Of a stretch of DNA of 52,162 nt, positions 5,903-32,180 are shown one piece after another. The DNA lies in assembly GCA_040079825.1 (NCBI GenBank), contig JBEBJP010000001.1, positions 1-52,162 of the forward strand. The letters run 5' to 3'. The stretch comes from Parcubacteria group bacterium. GTDB taxonomy: Bacteria > Patescibacteriota > Minisyncoccia > Phycocordibacterales > DATDWN01. The position numbers and the translations under genes were made by a program. The notes below the pieces were generated by a model. The model was not told the DNA's origin and made no database searches. It worked only from the letters and a program-made list of their open reading frames with translations. Position 1 is the first letter of the stretch; each line of letters begins with the position of its first letter.

Positions 5903-6244
5903 ATGATGGAAAGGAAGCTCTCTCACGTTCTGCTCGACCTCGGACTCTTCTGTGCGCTCGGTACAACCGAGCGCAGTGGTGTGGAACTGAAGTTGGTGAA
6001 GAAGGGTATGCCCTACACCACAGACACCAACAACGGTGTCTCAGTGGTGTACGACGAGGCCGGAAGGCCCTGGGTCATGAGACTCCAGGAAGCAGGCTCG
6101 CTCGGCTACCCCGGCAAGGAGATCCAGGCCTGCCTGGACGAGAACGGAAAAGAGCTCAAGCGGGGGGCTTACGTCCCCCACTCAAACGACGGCGGACACT
6201 TCATGCGAGAGGTCCTCCCGATGATCCTCCGCAGTGTGGGGTGA
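5903..6244 (+). CDS. Hypothetical protein (113 aa), GC-rich foreign-looking cassette
   Basis: SD AAGGAGG at 5893-5899 precedes ATGATG. There is a strong G/C third-position bias in this frame. Its own promoter and a terminator-like hairpin plus T-run (~6281-6316) flank it. I recognised no family. Confidence 0.55.
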   Translation: MMERKLSHVLLDLGLFCALGTTERSGVELKLVKKGMPYTTDTNNGVSVVYDEAGRPWVMRLQEAGSLGYPGKEIQACLDENGKELKRGAYVPHSNDGGHFMREVLPMILRSVG

Positions 6245-6343
6245 ACAATTAAGAGTTTATCGTTCTGTATACTGAACGGTCCGCCCCTAGCTCGAAGAGT
6301 TGAGGGCGTTTTCTTTTTAACAAACTTTTTTTAAGATATAATA

Positions 6344-10861: not shown

Positions 10862-11740
10862 ATGCTATCATATTTTAATATGTGGATATTATTTTCACTT
10901 TTAGCAGCATTCTTTGCAGCAACTGCAGGTGCGATTAGCAAACTAACTCTACAAAAAGTTGATGAGTATTTAGTGACCTGGGCATCTTTTGCTTTTAGTA
11001 TTCCGATACTCTTTGTTGTACTATTTTTCATCAAAATTCCTATATTAAATAACTTATTTTGGTTGGGAATACTAGGAAGTAGTGTATGTAATGCAATTGC
11101 TTTTATTGCTTTTTTTAGTAGCTTAAAACGACTCCCTATATCATTAGTTAAACCATTTCTAGCTTTTTCACCTCTACTTCTCACTGTTTTATCATTCATT
11201 ATTCTCAAAGAATTGCCGAGTGGATATGGTTTAACTGGAATAATAATGATTGTAATTGGCGCATATGTTTTAAATCTTAAAGAAATATCTTGGAATATTT
11301 TTTCTCCATTTAAGGAACTTTTCGGTCAAACAAAAAACTTAATATTATTTATACCTATAATTTTCTGGACGCTATCAGCAATCTTTGACAAAATTGCTGT
11401 TCAAAACTCTTCCCCTCTTTTTTATCTAACAACTCTTCCAATCTTTATCACAATTATCACTTCTATTATTATGAAGCAAAAATCAAACAACATCATAATA
11501 AAAATAAAAAGTAATTATTTTGCTTTAATTATAATTTCATTTCTCGGATTAGTTATGCAGATTTTTTACCTTACTTCAATCAAAAATACTCCGATCTCTT
11601 ATGTCTCTGCGGTAAGAAGCCTTGATTTTCTATTTTCTGTAGGATATGGATTTATTTTGTTTAAGGAGAGTATGATAAAGCAAAGATTTATAGGGGCTGG
11701 ATTTATGGTTTTGGGAGTTTCACTACTAGCCTTTGCTTGA
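10862..11740 (+). CDS. EamA/DMT-family transporter
   Basis: About 10 TM helices in two halves. I trimmed the track ORF (10643) to the ATG at 10862, because the upstream part is antisense to the GH125 gene. Confidence 0.65.
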   Translation: MLSYFNMWILFSLLAAFFAATAGAISKLTLQKVDEYLVTWASFAFSIPILFVVLFFIKIPILNNLFWLGILGSSVCNAIAFIAFFSSLKRLPISLVKPFLAFSPLLLTVLSFIILKELPSGYGLTGIIMIVIGAYVLNLKEISWNIFSPFKELFGQTKNLILFIPIIFWTLSAIFDKIAVQNSSPLFYLTTLPIFITIITSIIMKQKSNNIIIKIKSNYFALIIISFLGLVMQIFYLTSIKNTPISYVSAVRSLDFLFSVGYGFILFKESMIKQRFIGAGFMVLGVSLLAFA

Positions 11741-18084: not shown

Positions 18085-19203
18085 TTAATCTTCCTTTATT
18101 TTTACACTAGCCTCAAATGAAGTGTCTGCTTCTTTTGCGGATCTTCTAGAGTTCGTTAAATCTATAAGAGCTTCACCTCTGTTACCATTTTTCTCATTTT
18201 CCTCGGCATTTATTAGATGCTGTTCTGCTTCATGCAGAGCTTCTTTTGAATATTCCAGGATATCTTTTCTTGTATTTTTTGAATTGTTGGTTTTATTTAT
18301 AACTTTCTTCAAATTTTCTATCATTTTCTCTGTTGTTTTTTTCTTTATCTCAAATACATCATTTTGTGTTGGAGTCGAGGAAGAAACTACTACATTTTCT
18401 GAATTTACGTCCATAATTACGACATCCTCTTTAGTGTTGACCTTAGAAGCCTTCATTACCATAAAAGTAGCAGGTTCTGGAGTTTTAGTACTAGAAGATA
18501 CGTCCTCTGCCTCAGTAGTTGCAAACATTGCACTAGCTACCTGTACAGGCTCTTTTGCAATAACTTTTTTAATTTTATTTATATTTTCTTTGCTTGATTC
18601 ACTTTTTGAGTTATTTTCAAGTATCTCTAGAATTCTTGTGTGAGCGTTTATTTTTGCTTCAAAATCAACTTTTGTGTCTTCTACTACGATTGCATTTGTA
18701 TTTGTTTCTTTTGAAACTATAGTATTGAAGGAATCAGTGTGCTTTTTTATTAAATCCCCAACGATAACCTGAGATTCATTTGTTAAACGACCTTCTGACT
18801 CCAACTTTTCAACTTCCAAAAGTCTCTGATTTAAATTTTCAGATTGTAATTGTGCTCTAGATACATCACCAACCGCGAGTGTATATTGTAAGGGTTCAAT
18901 AAAATCAACTTTAAGTGAGTAAAGTTTGTCCCCAGGTAAAGAATTTGCAGCTCCGCTAAAGATATTAACGCTAGATATTCCCAAAACCAAAACAGCTACG
19001 ATTGCGTACGAAGCACGTGAGAATAAAAAGTTAGTCCAAGGAGAAACAATTTTTTCTTTGTTTACTATCAAAGATTTCTCATTTATATGTACGTTCAAGT
19101 TAGCCAAAATTCTTTCCTTTTCATCCAAGGTAAGTCCTATTTGTTTTATATCTTTTATTCCTTTTTTAAATTCATTCATCTCCATATAACTATTTATCTT
19201 CAA
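18085..19203 (-). CDS. Putative anti-sigma factor / DUF5667-like membrane protein
   Basis: 372 aa with a single TM helix after ~65 aa. It overlaps the 3' end of the upstream ECF sigma gene by 14 nt. Confidence 0.5.
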   Translation of the reverse strand: MKINSYMEMNEFKKGIKDIKQIGLTLDEKERILANLNVHINEKSLIVNKEKIVSPWTNFLFSRASYAIVAVLVLGISSVNIFSGAANSLPGDKLYSLKVDFIEPLQYTLAVGDVSRAQLQSENLNQRLLEVEKLESEGRLTNESQVIVGDLIKKHTDSFNTIVSKETNTNAIVVEDTKVDFEAKINAHTRILEILENNSKSESSKENINKIKKVIAKEPVQVASAMFATTEAEDVSSSTKTPEPATFMVMKASKVNTKEDVVIMDVNSENVVVSSSTPTQNDVFEIKKKTTEKMIENLKKVINKTNNSKNTRKDILEYSKEALHEAEQHLINAEENEKNGNRGEALIDLTNSRRSAKEADTSFEASVKIKED

Positions 19204-19756
19204 TATTATACCCAGTTAACTCCCGTAACTTATCCAACGCCCTTATAACCCTTACAGAAACAGCGTTTGACGTGACTCCTAGCACGTCCCCAATCTCTTT
19301 TGGATTCAAGCCCTCCACAAACCGAAGGTAGATAATTTGTTGTGCATTGGCAGGCAGGAGAGATATCTTATCCATTACAAACCTAGCCTCTACAGACATA
19401 TCAGCATCTTCTTTTGTTTTGTTTTCATCTGACATAAACATTTTATCTTCATCTTCTTCCAATATAGCATCAAGTGAAAGGGATTTTTTCTTTCTGTAAT
19501 AATCGATTATCAAATTCCTGGCTATCATAAAAATAAAAGCTCGATCATTGTTTATTTCTTTGCCACTTGCCAAATAATCCCATAACTTCGTAAAAGTTTC
19601 TTGGGTAAGATCGGTAGCAACTTCTCGATCAGAAATTCTGAAAAAACAGTACCTAAAAATAGCGTCGGATTGAACATCGTATATACCAATGAACCTGTTT
19701 TTTAATGTTTCTTTATCCATCGGTTTAGACGTTTGGAGATATGAAAACTTACTCAA
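19190..19756 (-). CDS. ECF-type RNA polymerase sigma-70 family factor
   Basis: 188 aa with region 2 (DLTQETFTKLWDY...RAFIFMIARNLIIDYYRKKK) and a region 4 HTH (IGDVLGVTSNAVSVRVIRALDKLR). Confidence 0.85.
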   Translation of the reverse strand: MSKFSYLQTSKPMDKETLKNRFIGIYDVQSDAIFRYCFFRISDREVATDLTQETFTKLWDYLASGKEINNDRAFIFMIARNLIIDYYRKKKSLSLDAILEEDEDKMFMSDENKTKEDADMSVEARFVMDKISLLPANAQQIIYLRFVEGLNPKEIGDVLGVTSNAVSVRVIRALDKLRELTGYNIEDK

Positions 19757-19911
19757 TATAATCCTATCATTATTTCAATTTTTTTGGTAAAAAAATGGCC
19801 ACCCGCACGACGAGGCGTAGGTGACCATTCTCCAATTTGGAGCAAATTTTGTCTTGCAAATTAAGAAGAACTTGCCGTGGCTGGGACCACGGCCGAAGAG
19901 GAGGGGTAGAG

Positions 19912-20208
19912 CTAGACGAACGCGACCTTGGCTTTCTCGAGCTCCTGCTTCACCTGTCGCATCTTTACAGAAGCGCACAGTGAGCAGTCGGGGGTCCACG
20001 GGAATTCGTAGAGCCTGCCTGGCGAGATTCGATTCGTACACTCGCCGTTCTGGCACTCTCCGTAAGTGCCGTTAGAAATGCGACCCAAAGCTTCGTTGAC
20101 TGCCCGAAGCTTCTTGCGATCGGCATCCGAAAGCGACATCTGTGCCGCCTTCGCATCAAGATCCGTCTTGATCCCTCTCAAGACGGTAGCCCGGTGGTGA
20201 AGTGTCAT
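19912..20208 (-). CDS. TraR/DksA-family C4 zinc-finger protein (GC-rich cassette 2)
   Basis: 98 aa: GECQNGEC-x-RISPGRL-x9-CSLC matches the TraR/DksA C4 finger pattern. GC-rich third positions. A hairpin plus T-run lies downstream on the minus strand (~19785-19830). Confidence 0.7.
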   Translation of the reverse strand: MTLHHRATVLRGIKTDLDAKAAQMSLSDADRKKLRAVNEALGRISNGTYGECQNGECTNRISPGRLYEFPWTPDCSLCASVKMRQVKQELEKAKVAFV

Positions 20209-20304
20209 ACGACTACCCCTACGAGACTCTTTCGTTGAACAAACGAACCAATATTTAGTGTTACATCTGTATAAATAAATGTCAAGTAAATAGACTAAAA
20301 ATAA

Positions 20305-20344
20305 AACAAAAAACCACTATTTTGGATTAGTGGTTTTTTGTTTT
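20305..20344. terminator. Bidirectional terminator-like hairpin
   Basis: Stem AACCACTA (20312-20319) / TAGTGGTT (20328-20335), flanked by an A-run and a T-run. Confidence 0.6.
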
Positions 20345-20426
20345 AAACAATCCTTTTATTTTCATGCCTATATTCTTCAATTGCTCGAGTCCAAGCCATA
20401 CGCAAAAATATTTACAATATTTTTTT

Positions 20427-20642
20427 GCTGTGTTTCTTGAATGAAGTTAGAACTTTTTTCCAAAATAATTCTAACTCTGACTAATGAATTCCGTCACGGC
20501 TCGGCATCCGTTCCAGAACACGCTGGGAGCGTGTTCCTCCACTTCTGCCGACCCGCTCCGCCCTCGCCTCGCCACCGTATTCATTCTAGGTTTTTTGGCG
20601 CGACTTCCTTTTTGATTTGGTATGTCGGTGGCGGTCTCGGGC
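20427..20642 (+). repeat. Inverted repeat IR-A, left copy (216 bp)
   Basis: Exact reverse complement of 30057-30272 wherever I compared. Spurious ORFs 20441..20707 and 30031..30258 translate identically for 67 aa. Confidence 0.9.
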
Positions 20643-21175
20643 GGGTTTCTCTTGAAAGAGAAACTGACGGAATTCACTCGGTGACGGACGTTTGCTGTGC
20701 TTCCTAGATTTTATCATAACGGCTCATATCGTGGTATGTGAGCCGTTCACTTGTTGTCTCGTGCTTATTTCTCGCTAGTGGCAGTCCGTGGGTGCAACCC
20801 TCGGCATCCGCCTCGGGCATTTCCGCTAGGGCTACGAGCGCCTAGATTGCTAGGAGTTCTGCTTATTCCTCGCTTCGCTCGGAATGCAGAACATCTGTTT
20901 GGGGGAAGGAAGGAATCCTTCCCCCAGCTTCGCCTCGGTTCGTGCGTCCGCTTCGCGGCGCATTCCGCAGAGCGGAACAGGGCTCACCCCACCCGGCTCG
21001 CACAACCCCCTTTCTCGTTTTCATATTCATGTTCGTAGTGTCGCTTCCGATTTGACTGGAAAAGACTTTGAAAACGGCGGCGCTCGTCAGATACCGGACG
21101 CCCTAGCGGAAATGCCCGAGGCTGCATCTTGTGTGTTTGACCCACCCTCCCAGTTCGCACACACATTTTGCTCCC
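20485..21175 (+). ncRNA. Candidate large structured RNA (unclassified), GC-rich and ORF-poor
   Basis: Nested perfect helices: 20811-20832/21100-21121 (22 bp), 20485-20496/20665-20676 (12 bp). Hairpins at 20516-20536, 20718-20747, 20856-20892 and 20901-20925. Only R/P/A-rich shadow ORFs are present. The strand call is based on a single T-G wobble, so it is tentative. Confidence 0.45.
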
Positions 21176-21625
21176 TTAGATTTTTGAATACGAAACTCCT
21201 TTTCCAGTTTTACCACTTTGCTTTATTTTATTTTCTTTCTCCAGTATTTCTAGGTATCGTGTTGCTGTTGCGTCAGATACACGCAAAAACTTTTCTACTT
21301 CATCGTTGGTTATATTTGTTCGCTTCGCGAACAAAGTCATGATGTGATCGAGTTTCTTTCTTTTTCGAGTTTGGATTGCAAATCGTGCTTTGTTCAGCAA
21401 ATCTCTTGCGAGATTTGGTTTAGGAGACACAGGCTCCGCCTGTGTAGGAGAAGATGCAGGAGCAGAATCGGTTTCGACCGATTCGGGTTCGGGTTCAACT
21501 TGTTTCGTTTCCGAAACAGATTCAGAAACTAACGGCTCACTTGGTGGTACTTGAGCCGTTTGAGGTTGTGGTTCGATTGGAGCTTCTGATGAGATGTCTA
21601 TATTTGGAGCTATTTCGTCACTCAT
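21176..21625 (-). CDS. Acidic/Pro-rich protein with C-terminal winged-helix DNA-binding domain (candidate regulator)
   Basis: 149 aa. The C-terminus ITNDEVEKFLRVSDATATRYLEILEKENKIKQSGKTGKGVSY is wHTH-like. The ATG lies 6 nt after a TATAAT box, so the mRNA is probably leaderless. Confidence 0.6.
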   Translation of the reverse strand: MSDEIAPNIDISSEAPIEPQPQTAQVPPSEPLVSESVSETKQVEPEPESVETDSAPASSPTQAEPVSPKPNLARDLLNKARFAIQTRKRKKLDHIMTLFAKRTNITNDEVEKFLRVSDATATRYLEILEKENKIKQSGKTGKGVSYSKI

Positions 21626-21629
21626 CTAA

Positions 21630-21716
21630 ATATTATATACCAAACGGCTCATTTGGTAAGCCGTATTTTCAGCGTTTTTGACTTGACAAAGAGAGTGAAG
21701 TGTGCTAAGATAGATA
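21630..21716. promoter_or_regulatory. Divergent promoter/operator module, copy 1
   Basis: Rightward: TTGACA 21683-21688, 17 nt, TAAGAT 21706-21711. Leftward: TTACCA (21655-21660 rc), 16 nt, TATAAT (21632-21637 rc). The palindrome ACCAAA-N7-TTTGGT lies at 21639-21657. The module is near-identical to 24087-24170. Confidence 0.7.
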
Positions 21717-21769
21717 ACAGAGGGGAGGCGTTACGCCAAACCCAACAGTTTCGCCCATAGGAGGGCACC

Positions 21770-22423
21770 ATGCAGAACATTCTGATCATTGAAGACACCC
21801 TGAAGCACCAAGCGGCGGCGCGAGCACAGTTTCCGGAGGCAGTTGTCGTCAACTACGACGAAGCCTACGAGCTCCTGCGCGACGCACGTCACGGCGACTA
21901 CTCGGCGATCCTCACGGACCTCCACTTCAAGACGGAGAGGAACAGGATCATCCCGGCCATGCCCTTCGGCCCGCAATTCGAGCGGAACGACGGGGCGATC
22001 GGCAAGGAGTTCCCGTTCGGCCTCTGCTTCGCGCTGAAAGGCGTCGAGCTCGGGATTCCGGTCGTGATCGTCAGCGACGCCGACCATCACTCCGACATGG
22101 TCACCGCCATGCTGGATATGATGGGTTTCCTCGTTCAACCACGCGGTGGCAAGGACGAGAAGCGACACTTCATCAAAGGTGGAGGACGTGGTCCCGAGTC
22201 GTTCAGCTGGGAGAATCGGGTTCAGAATCCCCGGTTGATCAGCAAGATGTCCAACTGTCCGAAGGCGGAGGACATGCACTGGAACGGCGACGAGATCGTG
22301 TCCGCACCCCCGGTGAAGCCGGAACCGTACACCGAGCAGGGTTGGAAAACCTACGCGAACAGTCAGGTGAAAGACTGGCGCGAGGCACACCGGCTTCTCT
22401 CTGCTGTCATGGCCGAGTCGTAG
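21770..22423 (+). CDS. Receiver (REC)-like domain protein with unknown C-terminal half (GC-rich cassette 3)
   Basis: 217 aa. SD AGGAGGG. NILIIEDT...AILTDLHF...VVIVSD resembles a CheY-like fold. Strong G/C third-position bias. The antisense ORF 21731..22390 is a shadow. Confidence 0.6.
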   Translation: MQNILIIEDTLKHQAAARAQFPEAVVVNYDEAYELLRDARHGDYSAILTDLHFKTERNRIIPAMPFGPQFERNDGAIGKEFPFGLCFALKGVELGIPVVIVSDADHHSDMVTAMLDMMGFLVQPRGGKDEKRHFIKGGGRGPESFSWENRVQNPRLISKMSNCPKAEDMHWNGDEIVSAPPVKPEPYTEQGWKTYANSQVKDWREAHRLLSAVMAES

Positions 22424-22488
22424 TACAAAAGGATTCGTGCTCTTCTCCTTAAAAGAGAGCTCCTAGCAGTGGTGGTCAACTGTAGTGG

Positions 22489-22516
22489 CGTCACGATATT
22501 ATCGTGGCGTTTTTTG
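22489..22516 (+). terminator. Terminator of cassette 3
   Basis: Stem CGTCACGA/TCGTGGCG (8 bp, one G-U), loop TATTA, then TTTTTT. Confidence 0.7.
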
Positions 22517-22521
22517 TTTAT

Positions 22522-23553
22522 TTATTTTTGATTTCCCAAGATATAACCCTCAAACTTTTTTGCCAAATCATACACAGTATTTTTTGCTGGTGAATCAGGA
22601 CAGTTTTCTAGAAAACTAAGAATGTTGTCTGTGTATTCCGTGTGTGTAAATTTAGGTAAGTTGTTTTCTCCTGTAAAAGCTCCAATGAATTTAACTAAAT
22701 GAGATTTAAAATCAGCTAATTTAATCATTTTTCCTCCATCGGAAATATGTTTCAGTTTCTCATAGTATTCTTTTACCTGTTCTCCTTTGTAATCTTTTGG
22801 ATGAGATACTTCATCTACCATATCTGCCACTCTTTTTCCAAAAATTCTTTCTATTTGCTCATATGTAGCAGAAGTATCTTCAAGAGTGTCGTGAAGAAGT
22901 CCGGCAATTAAAACTTCTTCATCCTCTATTCCAAACTCTTCTTTAAGAATCTGGCATACTTCCAGAAAATGATTTCCAGTTTCTATTTCAGCAAATTTTT
23001 TACTTGCGAATTTCTTTGCTAGTTCAATTGGATTTTCTACTGTCTCCTTAGTAACATCCTCAAAGTTATACTCTTTCATTTCTAAAGCTCTTTTCATGAG
23101 ATGATCGCCAATCTCACCCCATTTGATATATTCTTTATAATCTTTTGGATCAATTAGTTTTATTTCTAAAATATCTCCATCTGGATCTTTCTCAAATTCT
23201 CCATATGGTTTAACAATACAAAACATCCTAAATTGTCTTGCTATCCCATTTCCATATGACACTTCTACATCTTGATATCCAATACATTCAATATGAAGAA
23301 CTTTCATGTTCGATTCTTCTTTTATTTCCCGTATAGCGGCTTCAGTATATGTTTCTCCTTTCTCAATAGCTCCACCTGGGGGAGTCCAGTTGTTATCTGC
23401 TCCGTGACCGACAATGACTAGTTTGTCTCCATAGAAACAATACGAATGAACACCATCCTTTGTCTCATCAGGAGTTTCTAATTCGGGAACTCCGTCAGTA
23501 TAAGTGACTTTATAAGTTTTTCCTCTATGATCAAATTGAGTTTTTATTTGCAT
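22522..23553 (-). CDS. Nudix hydrolase fused to SpoT/RelA-type HD phosphohydrolase domain
   Basis: 343 aa. Nudix box [23 protein letters not shown]. The HD motif LLHDTLEDT lies in the C-terminal half. The gene overlaps the upstream rdgB-like gene by 23 nt. Confidence 0.8.
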
Positions 23554-24082
23554 TTAAGTATTCTTTAAGTTTTTCAACTGCTATTTTTCTCATGCTGAAA
23601 GAATTTTTCTCTTCAGCAGTCAATTCTCCAAAAGTTTTATCGTATCCTTCAGGCTGAAAGATTGGGTCCCAACCAAATCCGCCCTCACCTCGTGGAGAAA
23701 CTATTGTGCCTTTGGTATTACCTTCAAAGAACTCAACATTCCCAGATGAATCGGAGTAGCCAATTACAACTTTTGCTTCTGCGTTGTAGTTTCCAAATGT
23801 CTCTGCCAATTTATATAAACCTTCTTTTTGGATAGTCTTTAAGAACCACTTTATGAAAGGTCCAGGAAGTCCATTCATAGCTTCGAGATACAGCGAATTA
23901 TCCTCAACAATAAATTCTCCTTTCTGGTGCTTCTGTGCTTCTTCTAGCTTAGCCTTGATTATTTTGTGTGCATCCATTTCTTGGATTTCGGGCAAATCAA
24001 TATCAAGAGCCTCAACATCTCCTAAAATACTTTGAACTTCAGCTAGCTTACCTTTGTTACCTGTAATGAAATATAGTGACAT
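23531..24082 (-). CDS. rdgB: Non-canonical purine NTP pyrophosphatase (RdgB/HAM1 ITPase)
   Basis: [16 protein letters not shown]...[19 protein letters not shown] is the typical HAM1 family pattern. The start was set at the ATG at 24082, about 7 nt after the leftward TATAAT, so the mRNA is probably leaderless. The track ORF extends to 24121. Confidence 0.85.
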
Positions 24083-24086
24083 ATCC

Positions 24087-24170
24087 ATATTATATACCAA
24101 ACGGCTCATTTGGTAAGCCATATTTTCCGCGTTTTTGACTTGACAAAGAGATTGAGAAGGTGTATAATAG
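24087..24170. promoter_or_regulatory. Divergent promoter/operator module, copy 2
   Basis: Rightward: TTGACA 24140-24145, 17 nt, TATAAT 24163-24168. The palindrome ACCAAA-N7-TTTGGT lies at 24096-24114. The ~65-bp core is almost identical to copy 1. Confidence 0.7.
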
Positions 24171-24271
24171 TACTAGAATTCCTATTCGTTATGGATAGGT
24201 GGCTCCTAGGAGCAACGGGGTTATTTTTCCTACCTCGACCAAAGGAAATCGTTCGTTTACAGGAGGTCGTT

Positions 24272-24604
24272 ATGACCAATACAGCACAGAGAGAACTCGT
24301 TGCGGGTCCATCACGTGAAGAACTCTTCGACGCACTTCGGCTTCGGCACGAAGGACGCAAGGTCACCTTCACAGTGGCTCCGTCACACATCACTGGCCGA
24401 GTACTTGCTGGAGGACGAAGGTTCGTTCCCGGCAACCTGGCCTTCCATGTTCACGTGATCGAACTCGGCAACGAGAACGATGGCAACGGTACCAACTGGC
24501 TGTTCAAACTCTACGACGAGCACGCTGTTCTCGGCTCGATGTACCTCGAAGGATACATCAATCTCACGACTCGCAAGGGTTACGTGAGACCCGCCACGAA
24601 CTAG
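24272..24604 (+). CDS. Hypothetical protein (110 aa), GC-rich cassette 4
   Basis: SD AGGAGG lies 6 nt upstream of the ATG. It has a coding-like G/C third-position bias, its own promoter and a strong terminator. No family recognised. Confidence 0.55.
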   Translation: MTNTAQRELVAGPSREELFDALRLRHEGRKVTFTVAPSHITGRVLAGGRRFVPGNLAFHVHVIELGNENDGNGTNWLFKLYDEHAVLGSMYLEGYINLTTRKGYVRPATN

Positions 24605-24616
24605 GCGATCGCAAAC

Positions 24617-24664
24617 GCTCCACACTGAAAAGCTTCACAGCTTTCACAGTGTGGAGCTTTTCTT
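24617..24664 (+). terminator. Terminator of cassette 4
   Basis: 11-bp stem GCTCCACACTG/CAGTGTGGAGC with an inner AAAGCT/AGCTTT hairpin, then a T-run. Confidence 0.75.
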
Positions 24665-24693
24665 GTATAAAAAATGATATACTTTTAGTTAAT

Positions 24694-24900
24694 ATGGCAC
24701 AGAAAATTATTTTAAAATGTGATAAATGCGGAAAAGAATTTGAACTTATGGTTGGTCATCTAAAAAGTACAGCGGGTAAAGTTCCTGACGAAGAAATAGA
24801 ACAGAAAGATGGCAAGAAAGCTAAAGTTTTCGTCTCAGAAATATTTAATCATAAGTGTGATGGAAAAATATCTCTAGAAACTGGAGCATTCGTGGATTAA
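24694..24900 (+). CDS. Small zinc-ribbon-like protein (68 aa)
   Basis: MAQKIILKCDKCGKEF...HKCDGKI has CxxC and a distal HxC. It is AT-rich. Its stop codon overlaps the stop of the DUF3800-like gene on the opposite strand. Confidence 0.45.
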   Translation: MAQKIILKCDKCGKEFELMVGHLKSTAGKVPDEEIEQKDGKKAKVFVSEIFNHKCDGKISLETGAFVD

Positions 24901-25838
24901 AATAATTTCGATTGATTTGGATTATGCTCAAAAGCTAGATCGATTTTAGATATATCATAATAATTATCCATTGATCTGATAATTGATCCGGGAACAGAGT
25001 TTATTTTAGGGAAAAATGATAAATGAAATCTATTACTATGCCCGTATTTACTATTTGTGTTTCTAGATTGTCGAATAATTCTCTTAATTAATAATTCTTG
25101 AACTATATTTGAGTTTAAAATCTCCCTTTTATTCTCATTTTTCTTGCTTTCAAAGATACCGCAATGAATATCTTTGTATATACCCGCAAGAATATCGCAC
25201 AATTCTAGTATATTGGATAAAGGATTATCCCTATGGCTTTTTGGTAAAAATTCTATTCTTTCGCATTTAAAATTTAAATGTTCGTCTTGGTCTAATTTAA
25301 AAATAGTATGCCAATCAAAATAATCATGTTCTTGTTGCGAGCCTTCTTCGTGGTAGATATTCTCAACAACCACTCCTGATCCAAAGAATTTTTTAAGAGA
25401 ATACTGAAGCATCGATCTGAAAAATCTATTGTAAATAGAGTTTAACTTTTGTTTGTCACTAAACTCCTCAATGTTAAGATTTGTAAGGTTTATAGCCGTG
25501 AGAGAAAAGTAAAATTTTCTGTCTGAAAAACAATCATCCTGTATAAATTTTAACCATCTTTCTATAATAAATTTCTTGTTAGCATCTTTACCAAAATCTA
25601 CCCAATGTATATCAGTATCATTCTCCTCCTTGCGGGACTCCCAATCTTCTTTATCTTTTAAATAACGTAGATTTATTAGATCTTCGAGAATTGGCTTATC
25701 GAGTCTTTCGTAAATAGCCACAGAGTATATCCACACTTCACTCGTTATTTTATTTTTTGTCTGCCATATCTCATCAGAATAGATATTTACATGAATCGCT
25801 TTTTTTGGATCAATTGAATCCCCGAATAAATCAATCAT
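24897..25838 (-). CDS. DUF3800-like protein, last gene of the R-M operon
   Basis: 313 aa. The N-terminal VNIYSDE and C-terminal LELCDILAGIY resemble the DUF3800 DES...ADxxAG pattern as I remember it. The gene starts 6 nt after the res stop. Confidence 0.5.
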   Translation of the reverse strand: MIDLFGDSIDPKKAIHVNIYSDEIWQTKNKITSEVWIYSVAIYERLDKPILEDLINLRYLKDKEDWESRKEENDTDIHWVDFGKDANKKFIIERWLKFIQDDCFSDRKFYFSLTAINLTNLNIEEFSDKQKLNSIYNRFFRSMLQYSLKKFFGSGVVVENIYHEEGSQQEHDYFDWHTIFKLDQDEHLNFKCERIEFLPKSHRDNPLSNILELCDILAGIYKDIHCGIFESKKNENKREILNSNIVQELLIKRIIRQSRNTNSKYGHSNRFHLSFFPKINSVPGSIIRSMDNYYDISKIDLAFEHNPNQSKLF

Positions 25839-25844: not shown

Positions 25845-28076
25845 TTATCTCAAATCTAAAAATTTCCAATCTTTAAGATTATTCGGGTTGTATTCGTATT
25901 TCAACTTATCATGATAACGCCAACTATTTTTTTCTTTCAGTACAATCCCACCATATAATTTTTTACCTTTCTTGTTTTGCTCTGTAATATATTTTGCTAG
26001 TCCTTCGGCTCGTGATTTTGCTGTTTCAGCAGTAAGTCCTCCTTTCGTATCAAACAAACCAACATGACCTCCTTTTTGCATTACAACAAAATCAACATAA
26101 AACGGCTTCTCAACTCCATGCTCAATATGAGGTACAGCAAAATAAGAACCGTCTTTTGTCCCATTTTTAAACCACCATTCAACTGATTTTGATTTTTCTA
26201 AAAATTCTATGAAATCAACTTCAAGTTGACTATCCTCAAACAAATCTTCTGTTGCTGTTCCAGATTTTCTTGTGTAATAAGGTTGTATTATTGATTTTTT
26301 GTAATCTTTCTTTGCAAAAGATAAGGTATAGTTTATTACTTTCGGTACGTTCCATGGCTCTTCATTTTTTAGTAACTCATTTTTACCTTTTCCAACTTCT
26401 TCTTGGTACATCTCTTTTGCAAGATTGATAGTGTTAGTCATTATTTGTTGATTTTCTTCTGCAAGAACAGCGGCTTGAATCTTCGGCCATTCATCTTCGT
26501 TTCGTGATGCTTCGAAAAATGAATATATTGAGCTTTTTATACGACCGATTGAGCGTTGTTCTGGTGCGAATGGCGCAAGATTATTTCGAGCAAACATATC
26601 AAATGCGTTCTGCAATTCAACTTCGTTTTTAGGAATATCGAGTGTTCCTTTTTTCTCAATATTTTTTGATTCCTTGTCAGCGTCAGTGATCCGACCACTT
26701 GCGATTAAACTTGTTTTCAGAATGCTGTGTTTAAACGAAAATTTTTCCTTTAATTTCAATTTTTTACCAGCTTCAATAAAAAGAGGGGTGAAATCAGATG
26801 AAAGTCGTGTCTCCTCACGGAAGCGTTTTGAGTGGTAAGATAACAAATCAAGATTTTTATAATTCTTTATCCTAAGTCCTGTAAAAGTCGTAATGTAATC
26901 ACGCGACAAATCCTCTGCGACATTTATATCCTGCAAACTCGTAAATACATAGCCAACATTCAAGTCTTGATCGGCGTAATGTTTCTGTTCGGGCATACGC
27001 ATTATGCGCCCAAGTGTTTGGATAGAGAAAGTGATATTTTCTTCACGCCATTGTCTAAACAAAACCAAAATTGTCGCACGAGGACAATCCCAGCCAAGCG
27101 AAATTGCTTGCTTAAATATCATCACATCAACTTCGTTTTCGTTTTTCTCAATATTTGCTAGATTTATTTTATTATCCTTATCAGAGAGATATATCGCGAG
27201 TCGTCCATTTTCTGTTGTGTAACCAAATTTCTTGAGCAAAGCGATAATCTCATCCTTTTTATCGGATACTCCCTGCATGGCATCCGGTAATTGAATAAGT
27301 AAAAGAGGATTTACACTCGAGCCTTCGGCTTCGAGTTTTTTATGTAATTCAATTCGCTTTTTTAACGCACTTTCAAGCACGAGTTCGTCTGCCGATTTAT
27401 CGCTTTTCTTTTTATCAATAATGTAATGCTCAAAGCCCGGATTTATAATAATCTCTTTCTTGATCATCTCCTCATCCTTTACATCTTTGAGTTCCACCTC
27501 CACGATTCTATTTGCTCCAAGTTGTGGAGTTGCTGAAACTTCAATCGTAATTTTTGGTCCAATATCCTGTATTAGTTCCTTTGATTTTTCACTATTTGCT
27601 GTGTGATGACTTTCATCAATAATAAGAAAAATCATTCTGCCCTCATCTTTTGTGCGAGCAATAACACTCGTCAAATTATTATCTCGTTCGTTTGCGCGCA
27701 CATAAAGATTGTCTTTTTTATTGATACTTGCCCAGTTCAAGAATAAAATCTCATTTTCGCTAATCTTGCGGTCATCTAAATCTTCAAAATACGAACATTT
27801 TATCCCTACGCCGTTTTGGTCATAGTATTTTCTTAAATTGTTCCTGCTCTGGTCGTGTAATTTATTTACAGCAATCCATATAAACGAAAATTTTTTACTA
27901 TCTATACGAGAATCAATTAAACGCTTCAAAAACTCTGCCATCATCAGAGTTTTACCAGAACCAGTGGGTGCTTTAAAAATACAAACTTTACTTCCGTCTG
28001 TATCTAATAGTTCGTTGATTTCTCGTTTCAACTTTACGACTGCATTTTCTTGATAATTTTTGAATTCAAATATCAT
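25845..28076 (-). CDS. res: Type III restriction enzyme Res subunit (SF2 helicase-nuclease)
   Basis: 743 aa with helicase motif I KAPTGSGKT and motif II IIDESHH. It lies immediately downstream of mod. Confidence 0.85.
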   Translation of the reverse strand: MIFEFKNYQENAVVKLKREINELLDTDGSKVCIFKAPTGSGKTLMMAEFLKRLIDSRIDSKKFSFIWIAVNKLHDQSRNNLRKYYDQNGVGIKCSYFEDLDDRKISENEILFLNWASINKKDNLYVRANERDNNLTSVIARTKDEGRMIFLIIDESHHTANSEKSKELIQDIGPKITIEVSATPQLGANRIVEVELKDVKDEEMIKKEIIINPGFEHYIIDKKKSDKSADELVLESALKKRIELHKKLEAEGSSVNPLLLIQLPDAMQGVSDKKDEIIALLKKFGYTTENGRLAIYLSDKDNKINLANIEKNENEVDVMIFKQAISLGWDCPRATILVLFRQWREENITFSIQTLGRIMRMPEQKHYADQDLNVGYVFTSLQDINVAEDLSRDYITTFTGLRIKNYKNLDLLSYHSKRFREETRLSSDFTPLFIEAGKKLKLKEKFSFKHSILKTSLIASGRITDADKESKNIEKKGTLDIPKNEVELQNAFDMFARNNLAPFAPEQRSIGRIKSSIYSFFEASRNEDEWPKIQAAVLAEENQQIMTNTINLAKEMYQEEVGKGKNELLKNEEPWNVPKVINYTLSFAKKDYKKSIIQPYYTRKSGTATEDLFEDSQLEVDFIEFLEKSKSVEWWFKNGTKDGSYFAVPHIEHGVEKPFYVDFVVMQKGGHVGLFDTKGGLTAETAKSRAEGLAKYITEQNKKGKKLYGGIVLKEKNSWRYHDKLKYEYNPNNLKDWKFLDLR

Positions 28077-28077: not shown

Positions 28078-29790
28078 TTATTTAAAAATTTCCCGATACA
28101 CTTTCAATATTACCTCTGGTATTGCACAAAGCGTTACCTTATCCTTAACATCAACAAATTTCTTTGCGTGCGGGTCATCACCCATAGAAAAAACATAAGT
28201 GTTGAAATGCCCATTAATTTTTTTAATTGCTTTTTTATAGTCCTCTATTGATTCCTCATAGAAAATGACTCCGACATATTTATCAGTATTTTTGAAAATC
28301 TTGAATTCGTCTGTTTCTTGTATAAGCTCAAAAGCATTTTCCAAAATACAAAGCATATCAGCCGATTCTTTAACTAATTTTCTTTTATTTTTATCTGTCG
28401 GCTCAGCCTCGACAAAATCAGTAGTGTAATATTTCAGATTTCCACCAAGTCCCTCTTCCATATCTCCCTTAGTTTTCTTGTATCCCTTAATTGATTTTTT
28501 AATTCTTGGGTAGCAAATATCAGAAGCAATTTTGTGTTCAGATTTTTCGTCACCATTATTTGTACATAATATAAAAGACCTTTTTCCTCCATCTTCTTTA
28601 TTTAAAGCAAGCACAGCTTGTCCAGTTGTTCCTGAGCCAGCCATAAAGTCTAAGACAACAGCATTTTTATCTCCAATTAACTGAAGTATCTGTTTAATTA
28701 AACGAGTCGGTTTTGGTGTAGAAAAAAGTTCATCAGACTGCTCGAAAAAGTCCTTTAATTCTTTTTTTGCCTCATCGGTGTGTCCTGCTTGTTCATGTAG
28801 AAATATAGTAGACGCCTTTCGTCCTTGTTGCACTTCATCTAAAAATTGCTTGAGGGACGGGAAGGCATTTCCATTTTTACCAAAATAAAGTCTATTATCT
28901 TTTTGTAATTCAAGCATGTTGTCTTGTGCGTAAGACCAATGTTTACCACTAGGAGCATTAAATTTATCTCCCTTTGGTCCCGTTATAATGTAATGTCCAT
29001 TTTTTCGCTCCTCATTTGCGACTATATCACCTGGCTTCCAGACTCCGCGTGGGTCATTATCAGGATTTTTATAACGAGCGTTCATTTTATCTGTTCTAGG
29101 TAAGAGTTGAACATTAAGATGTTCTATATTTTTTGCATAGACCAAAATGTATTCGTGATCAACAGAAATGTGGCGTGATTGATTCTTTGGACTATATGCT
29201 CTTTGCCAAATTATTGTAGATACAAAATTTTGTTCTCCAAAAATTTCATCACAAAGCATTTTTAATGGTGCTTGTTCGTTATCATCAATACTTATAAAAA
29301 TTGCGCCCATTTCTTTTAAAATAAATCGGGAAAGTTTTAATCGCTTCTCCATAAAAGAAAGCCATTTACTGTGTCTGAAACTATCCTCTTTGTCTACAAA
29401 CTTATCATTATAGATAAAATCGTTATTACCTGTATTATAAGGCGGATCAATGTATATCAAATCTACAGCTTCGCGGTGTGTGAAATTAAGAACAGCAAGA
29501 GAATGATAATTGTCACCTTCAATCAAAAGATTAACGAGTTTTGATTTATCAGATTCAATGGCTTTCCCTTTAACTTCTTTTAAAACAGGAAATGGCTTAC
29601 CCGCCATTTCGTTGGGGAATAGTTCATTTGGAGTTCGTGCGTCAGGATTAACGAGAATATCAATTTTTTCTTCAGGTAAATCACGATGCCAAACAAGCCC
29701 ATATGTCGTGCTTTTAATTTTTACAATCTCCTTGATCAATTCCTCCTTTGACCAAGCATCATATTCTTTTCCGTTTATCTTTTTTGACAT
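28078..29790 (-). CDS. mod: Type III R-M Mod DNA methyltransferase (N6-A/N4-C class)
   Basis: 570 aa with catalytic motif IYIDPPYNTGN and the AdoMet motif LDFMAGSGTTGQA in beta-class order. Confidence 0.9.
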   Translation of the reverse strand: MSKKINGKEYDAWSKEELIKEIVKIKSTTYGLVWHRDLPEEKIDILVNPDARTPNELFPNEMAGKPFPVLKEVKGKAIESDKSKLVNLLIEGDNYHSLAVLNFTHREAVDLIYIDPPYNTGNNDFIYNDKFVDKEDSFRHSKWLSFMEKRLKLSRFILKEMGAIFISIDDNEQAPLKMLCDEIFGEQNFVSTIIWQRAYSPKNQSRHISVDHEYILVYAKNIEHLNVQLLPRTDKMNARYKNPDNDPRGVWKPGDIVANEERKNGHYIITGPKGDKFNAPSGKHWSYAQDNMLELQKDNRLYFGKNGNAFPSLKQFLDEVQQGRKASTIFLHEQAGHTDEAKKELKDFFEQSDELFSTPKPTRLIKQILQLIGDKNAVVLDFMAGSGTTGQAVLALNKEDGGKRSFILCTNNGDEKSEHKIASDICYPRIKKSIKGYKKTKGDMEEGLGGNLKYYTTDFVEAEPTDKNKRKLVKESADMLCILENAFELIQETDEFKIFKNTDKYVGVIFYEESIEDYKKAIKKINGHFNTYVFSMGDDPHAKKFVDVKDKVTLCAIPEVILKVYREIFK

Positions 29791-30056: not shown

Positions 30057-30272
30057 GCCCGAGACCGCCACCGACATACCAAATCAAAAAGGAAGTCGCG
30101 CCAAAAAACCTAGAATGAATACGGTGGCGAGGCGAGGGCGGAGCGGGTCGGCAGAAGTGGAGGAACACGCTCCCAGCGTGTTCTGGAACGGATGCCGAGC
30201 CGTGACGGAATTCATTAGTCAGAGTTAGAATTATTTTGGAAAAAAGTTCTAACTTCATTCAAGAAACACAGC
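30057..30272 (-). repeat. Inverted repeat IR-A, right copy (216 bp)
   Basis: Reverse complement of 20427-20642. Its outer end overlaps IR-B by 2 nt. Confidence 0.9.
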
Positions 30273-30401
30273 CCTGAGTGCAATTTAGAAAAGTGAGTAA
30301 AATCCGGAGCGTCACGCAGTGACGCAAATCGGCAATCCGCCGGAATCCGCCAAGGCATTTTGAAATCTGAAACCAGAATTCGATTCGCCACGATGGGGTT
30401 C
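30271..30401 (+). repeat. Inverted repeat IR-B, left copy (131 bp)
   Basis: Reverse complement of 31841-31971 with one mismatch (30393). After a 34-nt insert (30402-30435, two 6-bp hairpins), a further 11 bp (30436-30446) match 31830-31840. Confidence 0.9.
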
Positions 30402-30485: not shown

Positions 30486-32030
30486 ATGTCTAACAACAAA
30501 TTCTTTCTCTATGCTCGTAAATCTACGGACGAACCTGATCGTCAGATATTAAGTATTGAGTCGCAGATTGATGAGCTGAAAGAATTTGCTGTGCGAGAGC
30601 AATTGGAAATTGTTGAAACTTTTATTGAGTCACAAACCGCCAAAGAACCTGGTCGTCCCATTTTCAACAATATGCTCTCGCTCATGGAAAAAGGTAAGGC
30701 TTCGGGAATTTTGGCGTGGCATCCCGATCGTTTGGCGAGAAATAGTGTTGATGGTGGAAAAATTATTTATTTATGTGATATCGGTAAAATTTTGGAGCTA
30801 AAATTCCCGACGTTTTGGTTTGATTCCACTCCTCAAGGTAAGTTTATGTTAAATATCGCTTTTGGGCAGAGCAAATACTATGTGGACAATCTTTCAGAGA
30901 ATGTAAAACGTGGCTTGAGAACAAAAGTGAGGCGAGGCGAACAGTCCGGTCAAGCTCCGACAGGATATTTGAACGATATGATAAACAAAAAGATGCTTCC
31001 CGATCCGGAACGGTTTCGCCTCGTCAGACGGATGTTTGAACTCTACGCCACAGGGAATTATTCTCTGAAAGCTGTCCGTGATTTGCTCGCCCAAAAAGGC
31101 TTGGTATCTAAAAGTGGTAAAGTTCTCTCTATTTCAAACACACAAATGATATTGAGTAATCCGTTTTATTATGGAATGTTTGTATTTAACAAGGAACTTT
31201 ACCAAGGAAAGCACGAGCCAGCGATTTCAAAGAAACTTTTTGATGCGTGTCACGAGATAATGCTACGAAACGCTCATCCGATGAAGCGAGGAATTAACCA
31301 GCATGTCTTTCGCGGACTTTTGAAATGTGCAGAATGTGGTTGTGGTATTACAAGCGAAGTGAAGAAAGGTCATATCTACTATCGCTGTACTAAAAAGAGA
31401 GATGTCTGCACACAACCGTATGTCCGCGAAGAATCCCTCGCAACACAGATGAGTGACACAATCAAAAAAGTTTCTTTGTCGTCAGAGTGGAAGGATTGGT
31501 TGCTCGCTGAACTAGACAAGGAACAAGCGAGCACCTTCCACTCAGACGCCCTTTTCGTTCAAAATCTGAAAAATCAGATAATTAAGGTTGAGGAGTTGTT
31601 AGAGAAGCTTTTAGACGCTCATTTGGACAGTACAATATCGAGTGGGGAATACGTCGCGAAAAAGCAAAAGCTCCTCAACCAAAAAGTTGATTTTTCAGAG
31701 AAACTTAAGGATTTTGAACGAAAAGGCAATCGTTGGCTCGAACTTTCTAAACAATTTATTTTAGACTGTAACCAAGCCGTAATTATTGCTTCCGGAGAAA
31801 ATCTCGAAGAGAAAAGAGATTTTCTCAAAAAGATTGGCTCGAACCCCACCGTGGCGAATCGAATTCTGGTTTCAGATTTCAAAATGCCTTGGCGGATTCC
31901 GGCGGATTGCCGATTTGCGTCACTGCGTGACGCTCCGGATTTTACTCACTTTTCTAAATTGCACTCAGGGCTGCCAGACTTGGACTCGAACCAAGATACA
32001 CGCCTCCAGAGGGCGCGGTCCTACCATTAG
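30486..32030 (+). CDS. Large serine recombinase (resolvase domain + recombinase domain + zinc ribbon + coiled coil); true 3' end uncertain
   Basis: FLYARKSTDEPDRQILSIESQ carries the catalytic Ser region. A zinc ribbon is present (CAECGCGITSE...YYRC). From about aa 452 the frame runs through IR-B and stops inside tRNA-Gln. Confidence 0.85.
   Translation: MSNNKFFLYARKSTDEPDRQILSIESQIDELKEFAVREQLEIVETFIESQTAKEPGRPIFNNMLSLMEKGKASGILAWHPDRLARNSVDGGKIIYLCDIGKILELKFPTFWFDSTPQGKFMLNIAFGQSKYYVDNLSENVKRGLRTKVRRGEQSGQAPTGYLNDMINKKMLPDPERFRLVRRMFELYATGNYSLKAVRDLLAQKGLVSKSGKVLSISNTQMILSNPFYYGMFVFNKELYQGKHEPAISKKLFDACHEIMLRNAHPMKRGINQHVFRGLLKCAECGCGITSEVKKGHIYYRCTKKRDVCTQPYVREESLATQMSDTIKKVSLSSEWKDWLLAELDKEQASTFHSDALFVQNLKNQIIKVEELLEKLLDAHLDSTISSGEYVAKKQKLLNQKVDFSEKLKDFERKGNRWLELSKQFILDCNQAVIIASGENLEEKRDFLKKIGSNPTVANRILVSDFKMPWRIPADCRFASLRDAPDFTHFSKLHSGLPDLDSNQDTRLQRARSYH
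31841..31971 (-). repeat. Inverted repeat IR-B, right copy
   Basis: See the left copy. Its outer end is the discriminator base of tRNA-Gln. Confidence 0.9.
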
Positions 32031-32041
32031 ACGATCTGGCA
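31971..32041 (-). tRNA. tRNA-Gln (anticodon CTG)
   Basis: Hand-folded cloverleaf: TGCCAGA TC GTCT AATGGTA GGAC C GCGCC CTCTGGA GGCGT GTAT CTTGG TTCGAGT CCAAG TCTGGCA G. It has U1-A72 and G73, as in Gln tRNAs. Confidence 0.85.
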
Positions 32042-32180
32042 ATGAGTAAAAGATACTCTAAAATAGAGCTTTTTACAAGAAGAATATTGGGTGAAAACCA
32101 AGACTACTTATTCTTCTTTGGCTTCTTCTTTTCTTTTCTATGTGTTTCACCTTTTGACATAACTTTATTATAATACAAAA

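Follow-up and report, generated by a model that had tools for sequence, protein, structure and literature searches.

This locus raises the question of whether a short control region that occurs twice can tie four transcription units into one regulon. It lies in a 52,162-nucleotide stretch of DNA from a Parcubacteria group bacterium (contig JBEBJP010000001.1, positions 1–52,162), here called the window. Each copy of the region stands between two divergent units. Copy 1 (21623–21698) separates a winged helix-turn-helix (wHTH) gene on its left from the gene of a 217-amino acid (aa) REC-like protein on its right, and copy 2 (24080–24155) separates an operon of rdgB and a Nudix/SpoT-type HD gene from the gene of a 110-aa protein. 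An earlier note on this DNA had read all four units as a single regulon, with the wHTH protein as the binder of a shared operator and a possible role in defense. We favor a narrower explanation, to which, taken as a whole, we give a probability of roughly 0.6. The 76-bp repeat would be the intergenic control region of a widespread winged-helix gene of the candidate phyla radiation (CPR), copied or partly gene-converted elsewhere. Its left half would be a leaderless σ70 promoter, with a predicted transcript start at or beside the ATG. The duplication would then join two of the units through a shared operator and the other two only through a shared −35 element and the stretch upstream of it. All coordinates given below are window positions unless a label precedes them, and L001–L023 are labels of the related contigs and loci used for comparison.

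The repeat is direct, and its limits are sharply drawn. A repeat search of positions 20500–25500 reports it as the sole strong direct repeat, 76 nt long with 92% identity, and self-BLAST of the whole window aligns the two copies at 95.7% identity across 69 nt. The earlier note had described a core of ~65 bp (21630–21694 and 24087–24151) with two or three substitutions, and this description holds: two substitutions (21663 and 21671) fall within the core, and a third, at 21695, lies past it. With up to three mismatches allowed, a 24-nt query from the center of the repeat finds two matches in 52 kb (0 expected), as does a 20-nt query from its right part (0.03 expected). Contigs from other samples, 99.7%–100% identical to the window, cross each copy together with both of its flanks (L001 and L002 for copy 2, L017 for copy 1). 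Because these metagenome contigs are independent, the duplication is not an assembly chimera.

The same sequence recurs in other genomes, each time at the same gene. Among genomes taken one per species from 185,579 species, the 24-mer ACCAAACGGCTCATTTGGTAAGCC matches two contigs: L015, from a metagenome-assembled genome (MAG) labeled Saccharibacteria, and L016, from a Minisyncoccia MAG. A 21-mer gives three matches in metagenome contigs, namely L017, which is of the same strain as the window, L018, and L019. Every one of these matches directly precedes a wHTH ortholog, at the 5′ end of the gene. We therefore use copy 1 as the reference and regard it as the ancestral, wHTH-linked module, with orthologous modules in L015, L016, L018, and L019; copy 2, the copy before rdgB, is regarded as derived. 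Co-occurrence of the module with the four gene families in CPR metagenomes had been proposed as a check in the earlier note; the wHTH gene is present at every match, and the genes on the other side of the module differ between genomes. Viral contigs contain no match to the operator core, and we found no description of the module in the literature.

The left half of each copy contains a predicted promoter that reads toward the wHTH gene or rdgB. A consensus scan of positions 19000–25500 places all four promoters of the earlier note, one rightward and one leftward in each copy, among its six best σ70-like matches (at least 10/12). Both leftward promoters (21632–21659 and 24089–24116, − strand) have the form TTACCA-16-TATAAT and score 10/12. 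The −10 element had been said to end 6–7 nt before an ATG, and the distance is exactly 6 nt in both copies, to the ATG of the wHTH gene at 21625 and to that of rdgB at 24082. A promoter of the extracytoplasmic function (ECF) sigma type was also considered for this region and was rejected for want of a −35 match.

Comparison across loci indicates which parts of this half are held constant. In six aligned instances (both window copies, L015, L016, L018, and L019), a 32-nt block, TATTATATACCAAACGGCTCATTTGGTAAGCC, is invariant, and the first codons of the wHTH gene vary. When L020 and L023 are added to make eight instances, TATAAT-N6-ATG is present in seven, comprising both copies and five relatives, and L023 has TAATAT-N6-ATG; the letters of N6 vary. 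No Shine-Dalgarno (SD) motif precedes the wHTH start in L020 or L023. The arrangement is therefore one that fits leaderless mRNAs, as the earlier note had supposed, and it is kept in all eight instances, but it does not set these genes apart. A weak SD-like motif precedes only 2 of 41 native genes of the window, a TAnnnT hexamer stands 5–8 nt before the start in 19 of the 41, and several native genes have a perfect TATAAT 6–7 nt ahead of the start codon. Since leaderless, SD-free starts are the default among window genes, those predicted for the wHTH gene and rdgB are not special to them. According to a published survey, 16S rRNA lacks the anti-SD motif in part of the Parcubacteria (PMC9297842).

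At the core of the invariant block is a 9-mer, AACGGCTCA. The window contains it six times, where 0.18 occurrences are expected, and from its pattern of conservation it is the likely operator. One occurrence, O1, lies in the spacer of leftward promoter 1 (21643–21651, + strand), and the same 9-mer occupies leftward promoter 2 (24100–24108, + strand). The 9-mer also builds two perfect palindromes of the form AACGGCTCA-N12-TGAGCCGTT. The first, O2 (21530–21560), lies within the wHTH open reading frame (ORF), from +66 to +96, where it encodes TAQ-x4-EPL; the second, O3 (20717–20747), lies downstream of the gene. In five loci, a distance of 101.5 bp separates the center of O1 from that of O2. The 9-mer pair of O3 is intact in L016, L019, and L020, and L015 retains one arm; L023 has a second 9-mer pair 3′ of its wHTH gene, but this pair fails to align with O3. 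Across seven wHTH loci the 9-mer is restricted to sites of the O1, O2, or O3 type, and seven loci that hold cargo genes only contain one stray match. A domain V of a group II intron was considered for the 31-nt palindromes and was set aside by eye, as the order of the arms is reversed relative to domain V.

A different operator had been proposed earlier, the palindrome ACCAAA-N7-TTTGGT at 21639–21657 and 24096–24114, placed between the divergent promoters. The palindrome is present at these coordinates, but it lies inside the leftward promoter, where it overlaps the −35 element and the spacer. In L020, AAACGGCTCATTT is retained but TTCAAA...TTTAGT replaces ACCAAA...TTTGGT. Because the palindrome is degraded there, the conserved unit is the 9-mer AACGGCTCA, and we do not regard ACCAAA-N7-TTTGGT as the operator. 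The 9-mer overlaps the leftward promoter only, and it lies ~71 bp upstream of the predicted rightward start.

Within the wHTH gene, conservation of O2 extends to synonymous positions. Across seven genes, codons are identical in 6 of the 7 residue-identical columns of O2, compared with 22 of 63 elsewhere (Fisher p = 0.014). The motif TAQ-x4-EP[LF], with fixed spacing and variable middle residues, is found in 15 of 16 sampled distant homologs, and the N-terminal region around it is hypervariable. Such a peptide pattern is what a nucleic-acid palindrome would be expected to produce.

The wHTH gene (21176–21625, − strand) encodes a protein of 149 aa with a disordered, low-complexity N-terminal half and a C-terminal winged helix. 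FaeA is the sole Pfam family to match above its cutoff (22.1 bits; cutoff 20.7), and HTH_11 falls below its own; the MarR family profile PF01047 reaches 16.3 bits against a cutoff of 24.6, too low to assign the protein to that family. A search at E ≤ 0.001 returns 1,718 homologous proteins, whose named sources are Minisyncoccia and Paceibacterota, both of the CPR. The distant orthologs in L020 and L023 share 74% and 56% protein identity, respectively, and the phage collection contains no match. Since the motif is tied exclusively to wHTH loci, the wHTH protein is a reasonable candidate for the operator binder; to this extent the earlier proposal stands, with the 9-mer in place of the palindrome that it had named. 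Many homologs of the wHTH and 110-aa proteins are on contigs shorter than 2 kb, which suggests that assemblies tend to break near these loci, at repeats, strain variation, or shifts in composition.

Copy 2 holds the leftward promoter and O1 in the same register as copy 1, with the ATG now belonging to rdgB. Behind it, rdgB (23531–24082, − strand) and the Nudix/HD gene (22522–23553, − strand) overlap by 23 nt and form a bicistronic operon (22522–24082, − strand) of native, AT-rich composition. The pairing of an ITPase with a Nudix-SpoT-HD enzyme, read earlier from the translations, is confirmed by profile searches. The product of rdgB is RdgB/Ham1 (TIGR00042, 150.7 bits against a cutoff of 145.35; Pfam Ham1p_like, E = 1.4e-46), and its partner has Nudix and RelA/SpoT-type HD_4 domains. 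When translated from 24082 (MSLYF...), RdgB aligns from position 1 of the XTP/dITP diphosphatase profile, and this start is favored for that reason over an in-frame ATG at 24088. An exact-sequence look-up of the Nudix-HD protein returns the same strain only.

Sequence differences between the copies bear on how this arrangement arose. The −35/−10 spacer of copy 2 (AAGAGATTGAGAAGGTG-TATAAT) agrees in type with the wHTH spacers in L016, L018, and L019, and the −10 side of copy 1 is of the L015 type. Two states, TTTTTGAC and AAGAGA, are common to both window copies, are found in no relative, and are confined to the repeated tract. Because both copies share these private states, gene conversion or sequence exchange between them is indicated in this lineage. 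A Nudix gene is also present in L015, where its 3′ part matches the 5′ (Nudix) part of the window gene at 77% identity. It has neither rdgB nor a second module, which argues that the rdgB-linked copy is the derived one. Since copy 2 puts the operon behind the same promoter and candidate operator, co-regulation of the wHTH gene and the rdgB-Nudix/HD operon is plausible.

The remaining two units lie on the right side of the copies. Rightward promoter 1 (21683–21711, + strand) is TTGACA-17-TAAGAT and scores 10/12, with promoters in the same position in the REC-like loci L004 and L007; rightward promoter 2 (24140–24168, + strand) is TTGACA-17-TATAAT and scores 12/12. The −35 element, CTTGACA, is invariant in the six aligned instances, and the sequence past it is variable. 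The repeat itself stops between the −35 and −10 elements, and the −10 regions and leaders of the two units differ. The junction between this promoter platform and its cargo is located a few bases past the −10 element, at about the transcription start. What lies behind the junction changes from genome to genome: a REC-like gene in the window and in L015, an unrelated 120-aa ORF after a REC-type leader in L016, another ORF in L018, and yet another, after a long leader, in L019.

Each of the two window units has the layout of a self-contained cassette. The REC-like cassette (21712–22515, + strand) comprises a ~52-nt leader, an AGGAGG SD, the ORF (21770–22423), a conserved 3′ untranslated region (3′ UTR), and a terminator (22487–22511). 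The 110-aa cassette (24169–24661, + strand) comprises a ~97-nt structured leader, an AGGAGG SD, the ORF (24272–24604), and a terminator hairpin (24613–24661). The GC content of the ORFs is 60% and 55%, respectively, against 36.6% for the window, and GC content at third codon positions (GC3) is 0.80 and 0.60, against 0.22–0.30 in neighboring genes.

Both families are also found away from the module. The REC-like protein has ten homologs in a large protein collection, encoded by single genes at unrelated sites in CPR-like contigs, including the uvrB/uvrA gap and the mreB/tgt gap, and always GC-richer than their surroundings. Three of the four REC-like loci examined (not L006) have a TTGACA/TTGACT-17-TAnnnT promoter of their own, and L004 and L007 have in common a conserved leader, an AGGAGG SD, a conserved 3′ UTR, and a terminator. 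In these loci similarity to the window starts at the −35 element and does not include the left half. The 110-aa family, with 52 homologs, is likewise found elsewhere with promoters of its own and without the left half. Because the cargo varies and occurs elsewhere without the left half, we take the rightward promoters to be cassette promoters, to which the duplication adds only the −35 element and the T-rich part upstream. Of the proposed four-unit regulon, the two leftward units thus remain plausible members; membership of the rightward units, which are found elsewhere without the operator and have leaders of their own, is possible but not supported.

The leaders are conserved features in themselves. 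That of the 110-aa family, ~100 nt long, is conserved in four distinct loci (window 24169–24271; L010 5895–6000; L012 5897–6000; L013 3693–3800) and ends in the AGGAGG SD. Several helices are predicted for it, and of their 24 base pairs 5 show compensatory changes; we regard it as a candidate for a new cis-regulatory RNA. The REC-type leader (window 21712–21769; L004 7941–8000; L007 7495–7554; L016 1834–1900, − strand) has a GGGnAGGCnnAACGCCAAnCCC hairpin followed by a GCCC...GGGC stem around the SD; as its stems are invariant, they yield no covariation evidence. The copy in L016 precedes the unrelated 120-aa ORF, from which we conclude that this leader travels independently of the REC-like ORF. 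Rfam 15 gives no gathering-score match for the leaders or for the GC-rich region downstream of the wHTH gene that is described below. It gives nothing at E ≤ 1 in 19600–24800, and none at E ≤ 0.5 at the corresponding places in L004, L010, L012, L013, and L016.

The cargo proteins themselves have few recognizable relatives. Neither the 217-aa REC-like protein nor the 110-aa protein has a match in Pfam, NCBIfam, or PADLOC, neither is on record by exact-sequence look-up, and viral contigs contain no homologs of either. For the 217-aa protein, the AF2 model has a mean predicted local distance difference test (pLDDT) score of 70, and its best Foldseek matches are REC domains, at weak scores (E 0.01–0.1; template-modeling [TM] score 0.3–0.5). 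A profile search against PDB sequences finds nothing at E ≤ 1, and there is no match to the Response_reg profile. Residues E8, D9, and D50 are invariant in the family, and no conserved Lys could be placed. REC-like therefore serves as a description of the predicted fold, and membership of the REC family, which the profiles do not find, is not implied. The model of the 110-aa protein is confident, with a pLDDT of 82, and has no match among PDB folds better than E 0.015 and TM 0.4.

We can now set out how the locus would work. Most likely, the wHTH protein would bind O1, occlude RNA polymerase, and in this way repress its own gene; O2, and perhaps O3, would probably assist repression at O1 through looping or a roadblock. 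Copy 2, by fusing promoter and operator exactly at the start codon of rdgB, would make the operon leaderless and place it under the same control as the wHTH gene. The right half, with its T-rich stretch and TTGACA −35 element, would supply the upstream portion of a promoter that looks strong and constitutive and serves as an expression platform, and expression of the cargo is more likely to be tuned by the 5′ leader of each family than by the shared operator.

Several observations weigh against this explanation. O1 is absent from L023, the most distant ortholog locus, where 9-mer palindromes persist inside and downstream of the gene. With a 12-nt gap, the palindromes have their half-site centers at a distance of 21 bp, a wide spacing for a single winged-helix dimer. 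Since the peptide encoded by O2 is itself conserved, a constraint at the protein level may contribute to the conservation of O2, and the palindromes could be RNA hairpins in the wHTH transcript. It is linkage that makes the wHTH protein a reasonable binder; the recognition helix and the motif are both invariant among the loci compared, which leaves no co-variation of protein and site to read. Finally, O1 lies near −71 relative to the rightward start, an activator-compatible position, and operator control of the rightward units is thus possible.

This last point also bears on the proposal that one wHTH-bound operator controls all four units in a defense or counter-defense role. It has in its favor that the whole divergent region is kept in both copies, that the 9-mer is within activator range of the rightward start, and that a type III restriction-modification (R-M) system is adjacent. 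We nonetheless consider it unlikely: the rightward cassettes have their own promoters and no operator half elsewhere, other genomes have unrelated cargo behind the same platform, and the repeat ends before the rightward −10 regions and leaders, which differ. The R-M genes (Res, 25845–28076; Mod, 28078–29790) are real but form a separate operon, with nothing to tie the module to them. PADLOC yields no match to either cargo protein and only a weak generic one to the Nudix domain, viral contigs contain no homologs of the cargo proteins, the phage collection has no match to the wHTH protein and the plasmid collection none to 20427–24700, and the fold searches gave no defense-related match of any weight; the suggested defense module accordingly finds no support here. 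Another proposal, that the repeat is a passive recombination scar and copy 2 merely supplies rdgB with a promoter, draws on the mosaic structure of the copies (the L015-type −10 side of copy 1, the L016/L018/L019-type spacer of copy 2, and the private states that they share), on the position of the cargo junctions at the transcription start, and on the location of the region within a recombinase-associated island. This too is improbable in our judgment, as no other non-coding stretch of the locus is as well conserved between genomes as the copied left half, and its junction with rdgB preserves the leaderless register exactly (−10 element, 6 nt, ATG), which would be rare for a random scar. A functional promoter that carries the motif would, moreover, imply shared control whenever the binder is present.

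A further proposal turns on the palindromes, which on this account would be RNA hairpins, in the wHTH mRNA and in the GC-rich transcript downstream, or recombination sites, with the spacer copy a half-site relic. O2 and O3 each have a perfect stem of 9 bp and a loop of 12 nt and fall in DNA that is or may be transcribed, O1 is a single 9-mer, and the terminator scan flags O3. In addition, L023 retains two intact 9-mer palindromes without O1, and the adjoining GC-rich region folds into a large conserved structure. Yet O1 is unchanged in all six aligned instances even though it lies ahead of both predicted starts, and L020 keeps AAACGGCTCATTT amid changed surroundings. It is the sequence of the stems that is invariant, and not their pairing alone, as is typical of protein recognition, and the variable cargo does not abut the palindromes, which speaks against recombination sites; we find the proposal quite doubtful. 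A generic dispersed repeat without any link to a gene, of the repetitive extragenic palindrome (REP) or miniature inverted-repeat transposable element (MITE) type, is largely refuted and retains hardly any probability. The region does have short palindromes, and many related contigs are short, as is usual at repeats. But there are two copies in 52 kb, one in each related stretch and always at the start of the wHTH gene, and the repeat search detects neither terminal repeats nor a target duplication flanking the 76 bp. A repeat scattered between genes, which the earlier note had itself named as the finding that would overturn its reading, is thus not what the window and its relatives contain. 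The explanation that we prefer remains a wHTH control region copied, with its promoter and candidate operator, to rdgB.

The region is part of a larger island. Inverted repeats of 216 nt (20427–20642 and 30057–30272), of which the left is 100% identical to the reverse complement of the right, enclose a segment of ~9.8 kb that holds the wHTH gene, the cassettes, the rdgB-Nudix/HD operon, the type III R-M system, and an XRE-type HTH gene. The segment may be invertible or mobile, and the identity of the arms suggests that exchange between them is ongoing. L019 and L023 share this architecture, with equivalents of the repeats at 1–79 and 6311–6389 in L019 and, in three copies, at 4653–4870, 10936–11152, and 14698–14898 in L023. 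In L020, an XRE-type gene ~10 kb from the wHTH gene is 85% identical to the sequence just inside the right repeat of the window, and the locus stops where the inverted repeat would start. Just outside the right repeat is the gene of a large serine recombinase (30486–32030, + strand; 514 aa) with Resolvase, Recombinase, and Zn_ribbon_recom domains. It is flanked by inverted repeats of 133 nt (30269–30401 and 31841–31973; 99% identical), as are its counterparts in L019 and L023. One of these repeats abuts the 3′ end of a tRNA-Gln gene (31968–32042, − strand), and the recombinase ORF as listed overruns into the tRNA.

Between the left inverted repeat and the wHTH gene, and taking in the former, is a GC-rich, non-coding region (20427–21175; 730 nt) that lies downstream of the gene and contains O3 together with a long-range helix of 23 bp (20810–20832 with 21100–21122). 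The region is highly conserved and present in all wHTH loci, with homologs at L015 1481–2227, L016 2425–3172, L019 1–656, L020 10436–11160, and L023 10478–11200, and the helix is invariant in both arms even in L023, with its 56% ortholog. A few of its hairpins have compensatory changes, and the consensus folding energies of the two strands are nearly the same, at −129.9 and −126.4 kcal/mol. The region could be a large non-coding RNA, the 3′ UTR of the wHTH gene, or a site that acts at the DNA level.

Further GC-rich genes are present in and around the island. Four GC-rich cassette genes of the window were compared (5903–6245, 19912–20208, 21770–22423, and 24272–24604), and three of them have a perfect AGGAGG or AAGGAGG at canonical spacing together with a long leader, the exception being the DksA-like gene. 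The cassette at 5810–6310, outside the island, consists of TTGACA-18-TATAAT, a ~60-nt leader, AAGGAGG, an ORF of ~113 aa (5903/5906–6245), and a terminator; its GC3 is ~0.77, and no operator half adjoins it. The gene at 19912–20208 (− strand) encodes a 98-aa DksA/YteA-like zinc-finger protein, has 56% GC, and lies directly outside the left inverted repeat; it is followed, within 19775–20300, by a GC-rich 3′ region, and a strong, bidirectional-looking hairpin (20302–20345) stands between it and the repeat. A zf-dskA_traR gene is also found near the REC-like gene in L006. In L015, positions 1–1300, past the equivalent of the left repeat, contain several small GC-rich ORFs (80–120 aa, no Pfam match) that may be further cassettes. 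Two other genes lie between the 110-aa cassette and the R-M system: 24649–24900 (+ strand) encodes an 83-aa protein with a CxxC...CxxC-like spacing and a weak zinc-ribbon match, and 24897–25838 (− strand) encodes a 313-aa protein with no family match.

A more far-reaching idea brings these features together. The wHTH control region could be the fixed arm of a gene-exchange platform, with its conserved regulator, operators, and promoter at the margin of a repeat-bounded, recombinase-associated segment, and cargo made up of leader, ORF, and terminator would be swapped in at the transcription start. The cargo would be rich in GC3 and SD-bearing, in genomes whose other messages are translated leaderless or free of an SD. 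Such a platform would involve at least two undescribed classes of conserved leader, possibly riboswitch-like, and would resemble an integron with a different recombination logic. We offer this idea tentatively and consider it fairly unlikely. There is nothing out of the ordinary in a duplicated promoter as such; more unusual is the cassette platform with its leaders, which we put forward as a hypothesis.

To our knowledge, almost nothing is known of transcriptional regulation in the CPR/Patescibacteria. The locus offers a testable regulator-operator pair, made up of a wHTH family with over 1,700 members and the candidate 9-mer AACGGCTCA, with one site within the coding sequence of the regulator itself. 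It also offers what appears to be a case of promoter capture, in which a nucleotide-sanitation operon is joined in exact leaderless register to the promoter of a regulator. Its context further suggests that self-contained GC-rich, SD-bearing units with conserved leaders move between CPR genomes and sit behind the platform. Should the exchange mechanism prove real, its interest would extend to the general question of how accessory genes are gained and expressed by reduced genomes.

Parts of this arrangement resemble known systems. Like the G segment of Mu with Gin and the C segment of P1 with Cin, the island is bounded by inverted repeats and has a serine recombinase directly outside one of them. 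In contrast to these, the place of the small invertase is taken by a large recombinase of 514 aa, the repeats have a length of 216 nt, the segment spans ~9.8 kb, and inversion is hypothetical here. Phage morons are autonomous promoter-gene-terminator units of deviant base composition. The REC-like, 110-aa, DksA-like, and 5810–6310 units, each with promoter, leader, ORF, and terminator, resemble them and likewise differ in composition from their surroundings (GC3 0.60–0.80 against 0.22–0.30), but the units described here have no phage context that we could find and are scattered between housekeeping genes of cellular CPR genomes. The integron, with its Pc promoter and attI site, is similar in that one conserved promoter platform, beside a region linked to a regulator or to recombination, serves different adjacent cargo in different genomes. 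It differs in that here there is no IntI tyrosine recombinase, the only recombinase being the large serine one, and there are no attC-like repeats flanking the cargo. Each cargo here has its own leader and terminator, and elsewhere its own promoter, and the junction falls at the transcription start.

For the regulatory half, the closest parallels lie among autoregulated repressors. As with MarR-type repressors, a small wHTH protein is encoded next to palindromic sites that overlap its own −35 and −10 elements; unlike them, this protein falls below the Pfam threshold for MarR, is disordered over a long N-terminal stretch with only one winged helix, at the C terminus, and is paired with sites of an unusual 12-nt half-site spacing. 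λ cI with PRM/PR and Tn1721 tetR/tetA have divergent promoters, shared operators, and a leaderless repressor mRNA. The present locus is like both in that its promoters stand back to back within ~60 bp, with further operator copies at a distance, and in that the regulator is predicted to be leaderless and its promoter is overlapped by the presumed operator. It is unlike both in that the regulator belongs to a CPR winged-helix family, and not to the λ-type or TetR-type HTH proteins, and in that the motif, as a candidate operator, overlaps the regulator-side promoter only, the opposite promoter driving exchangeable cargo. Auxiliary operators within genes are known from lac O2 in lacZ and gal OI in galE. 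Here, too, a second candidate operator lies in coding sequence, ~100 bp from the promoter-proximal site, at a distance compatible with looping or a roadblock, but it lies in the ORF of the regulator itself, where it shapes the family-conserved TAQ-x4-EPL.

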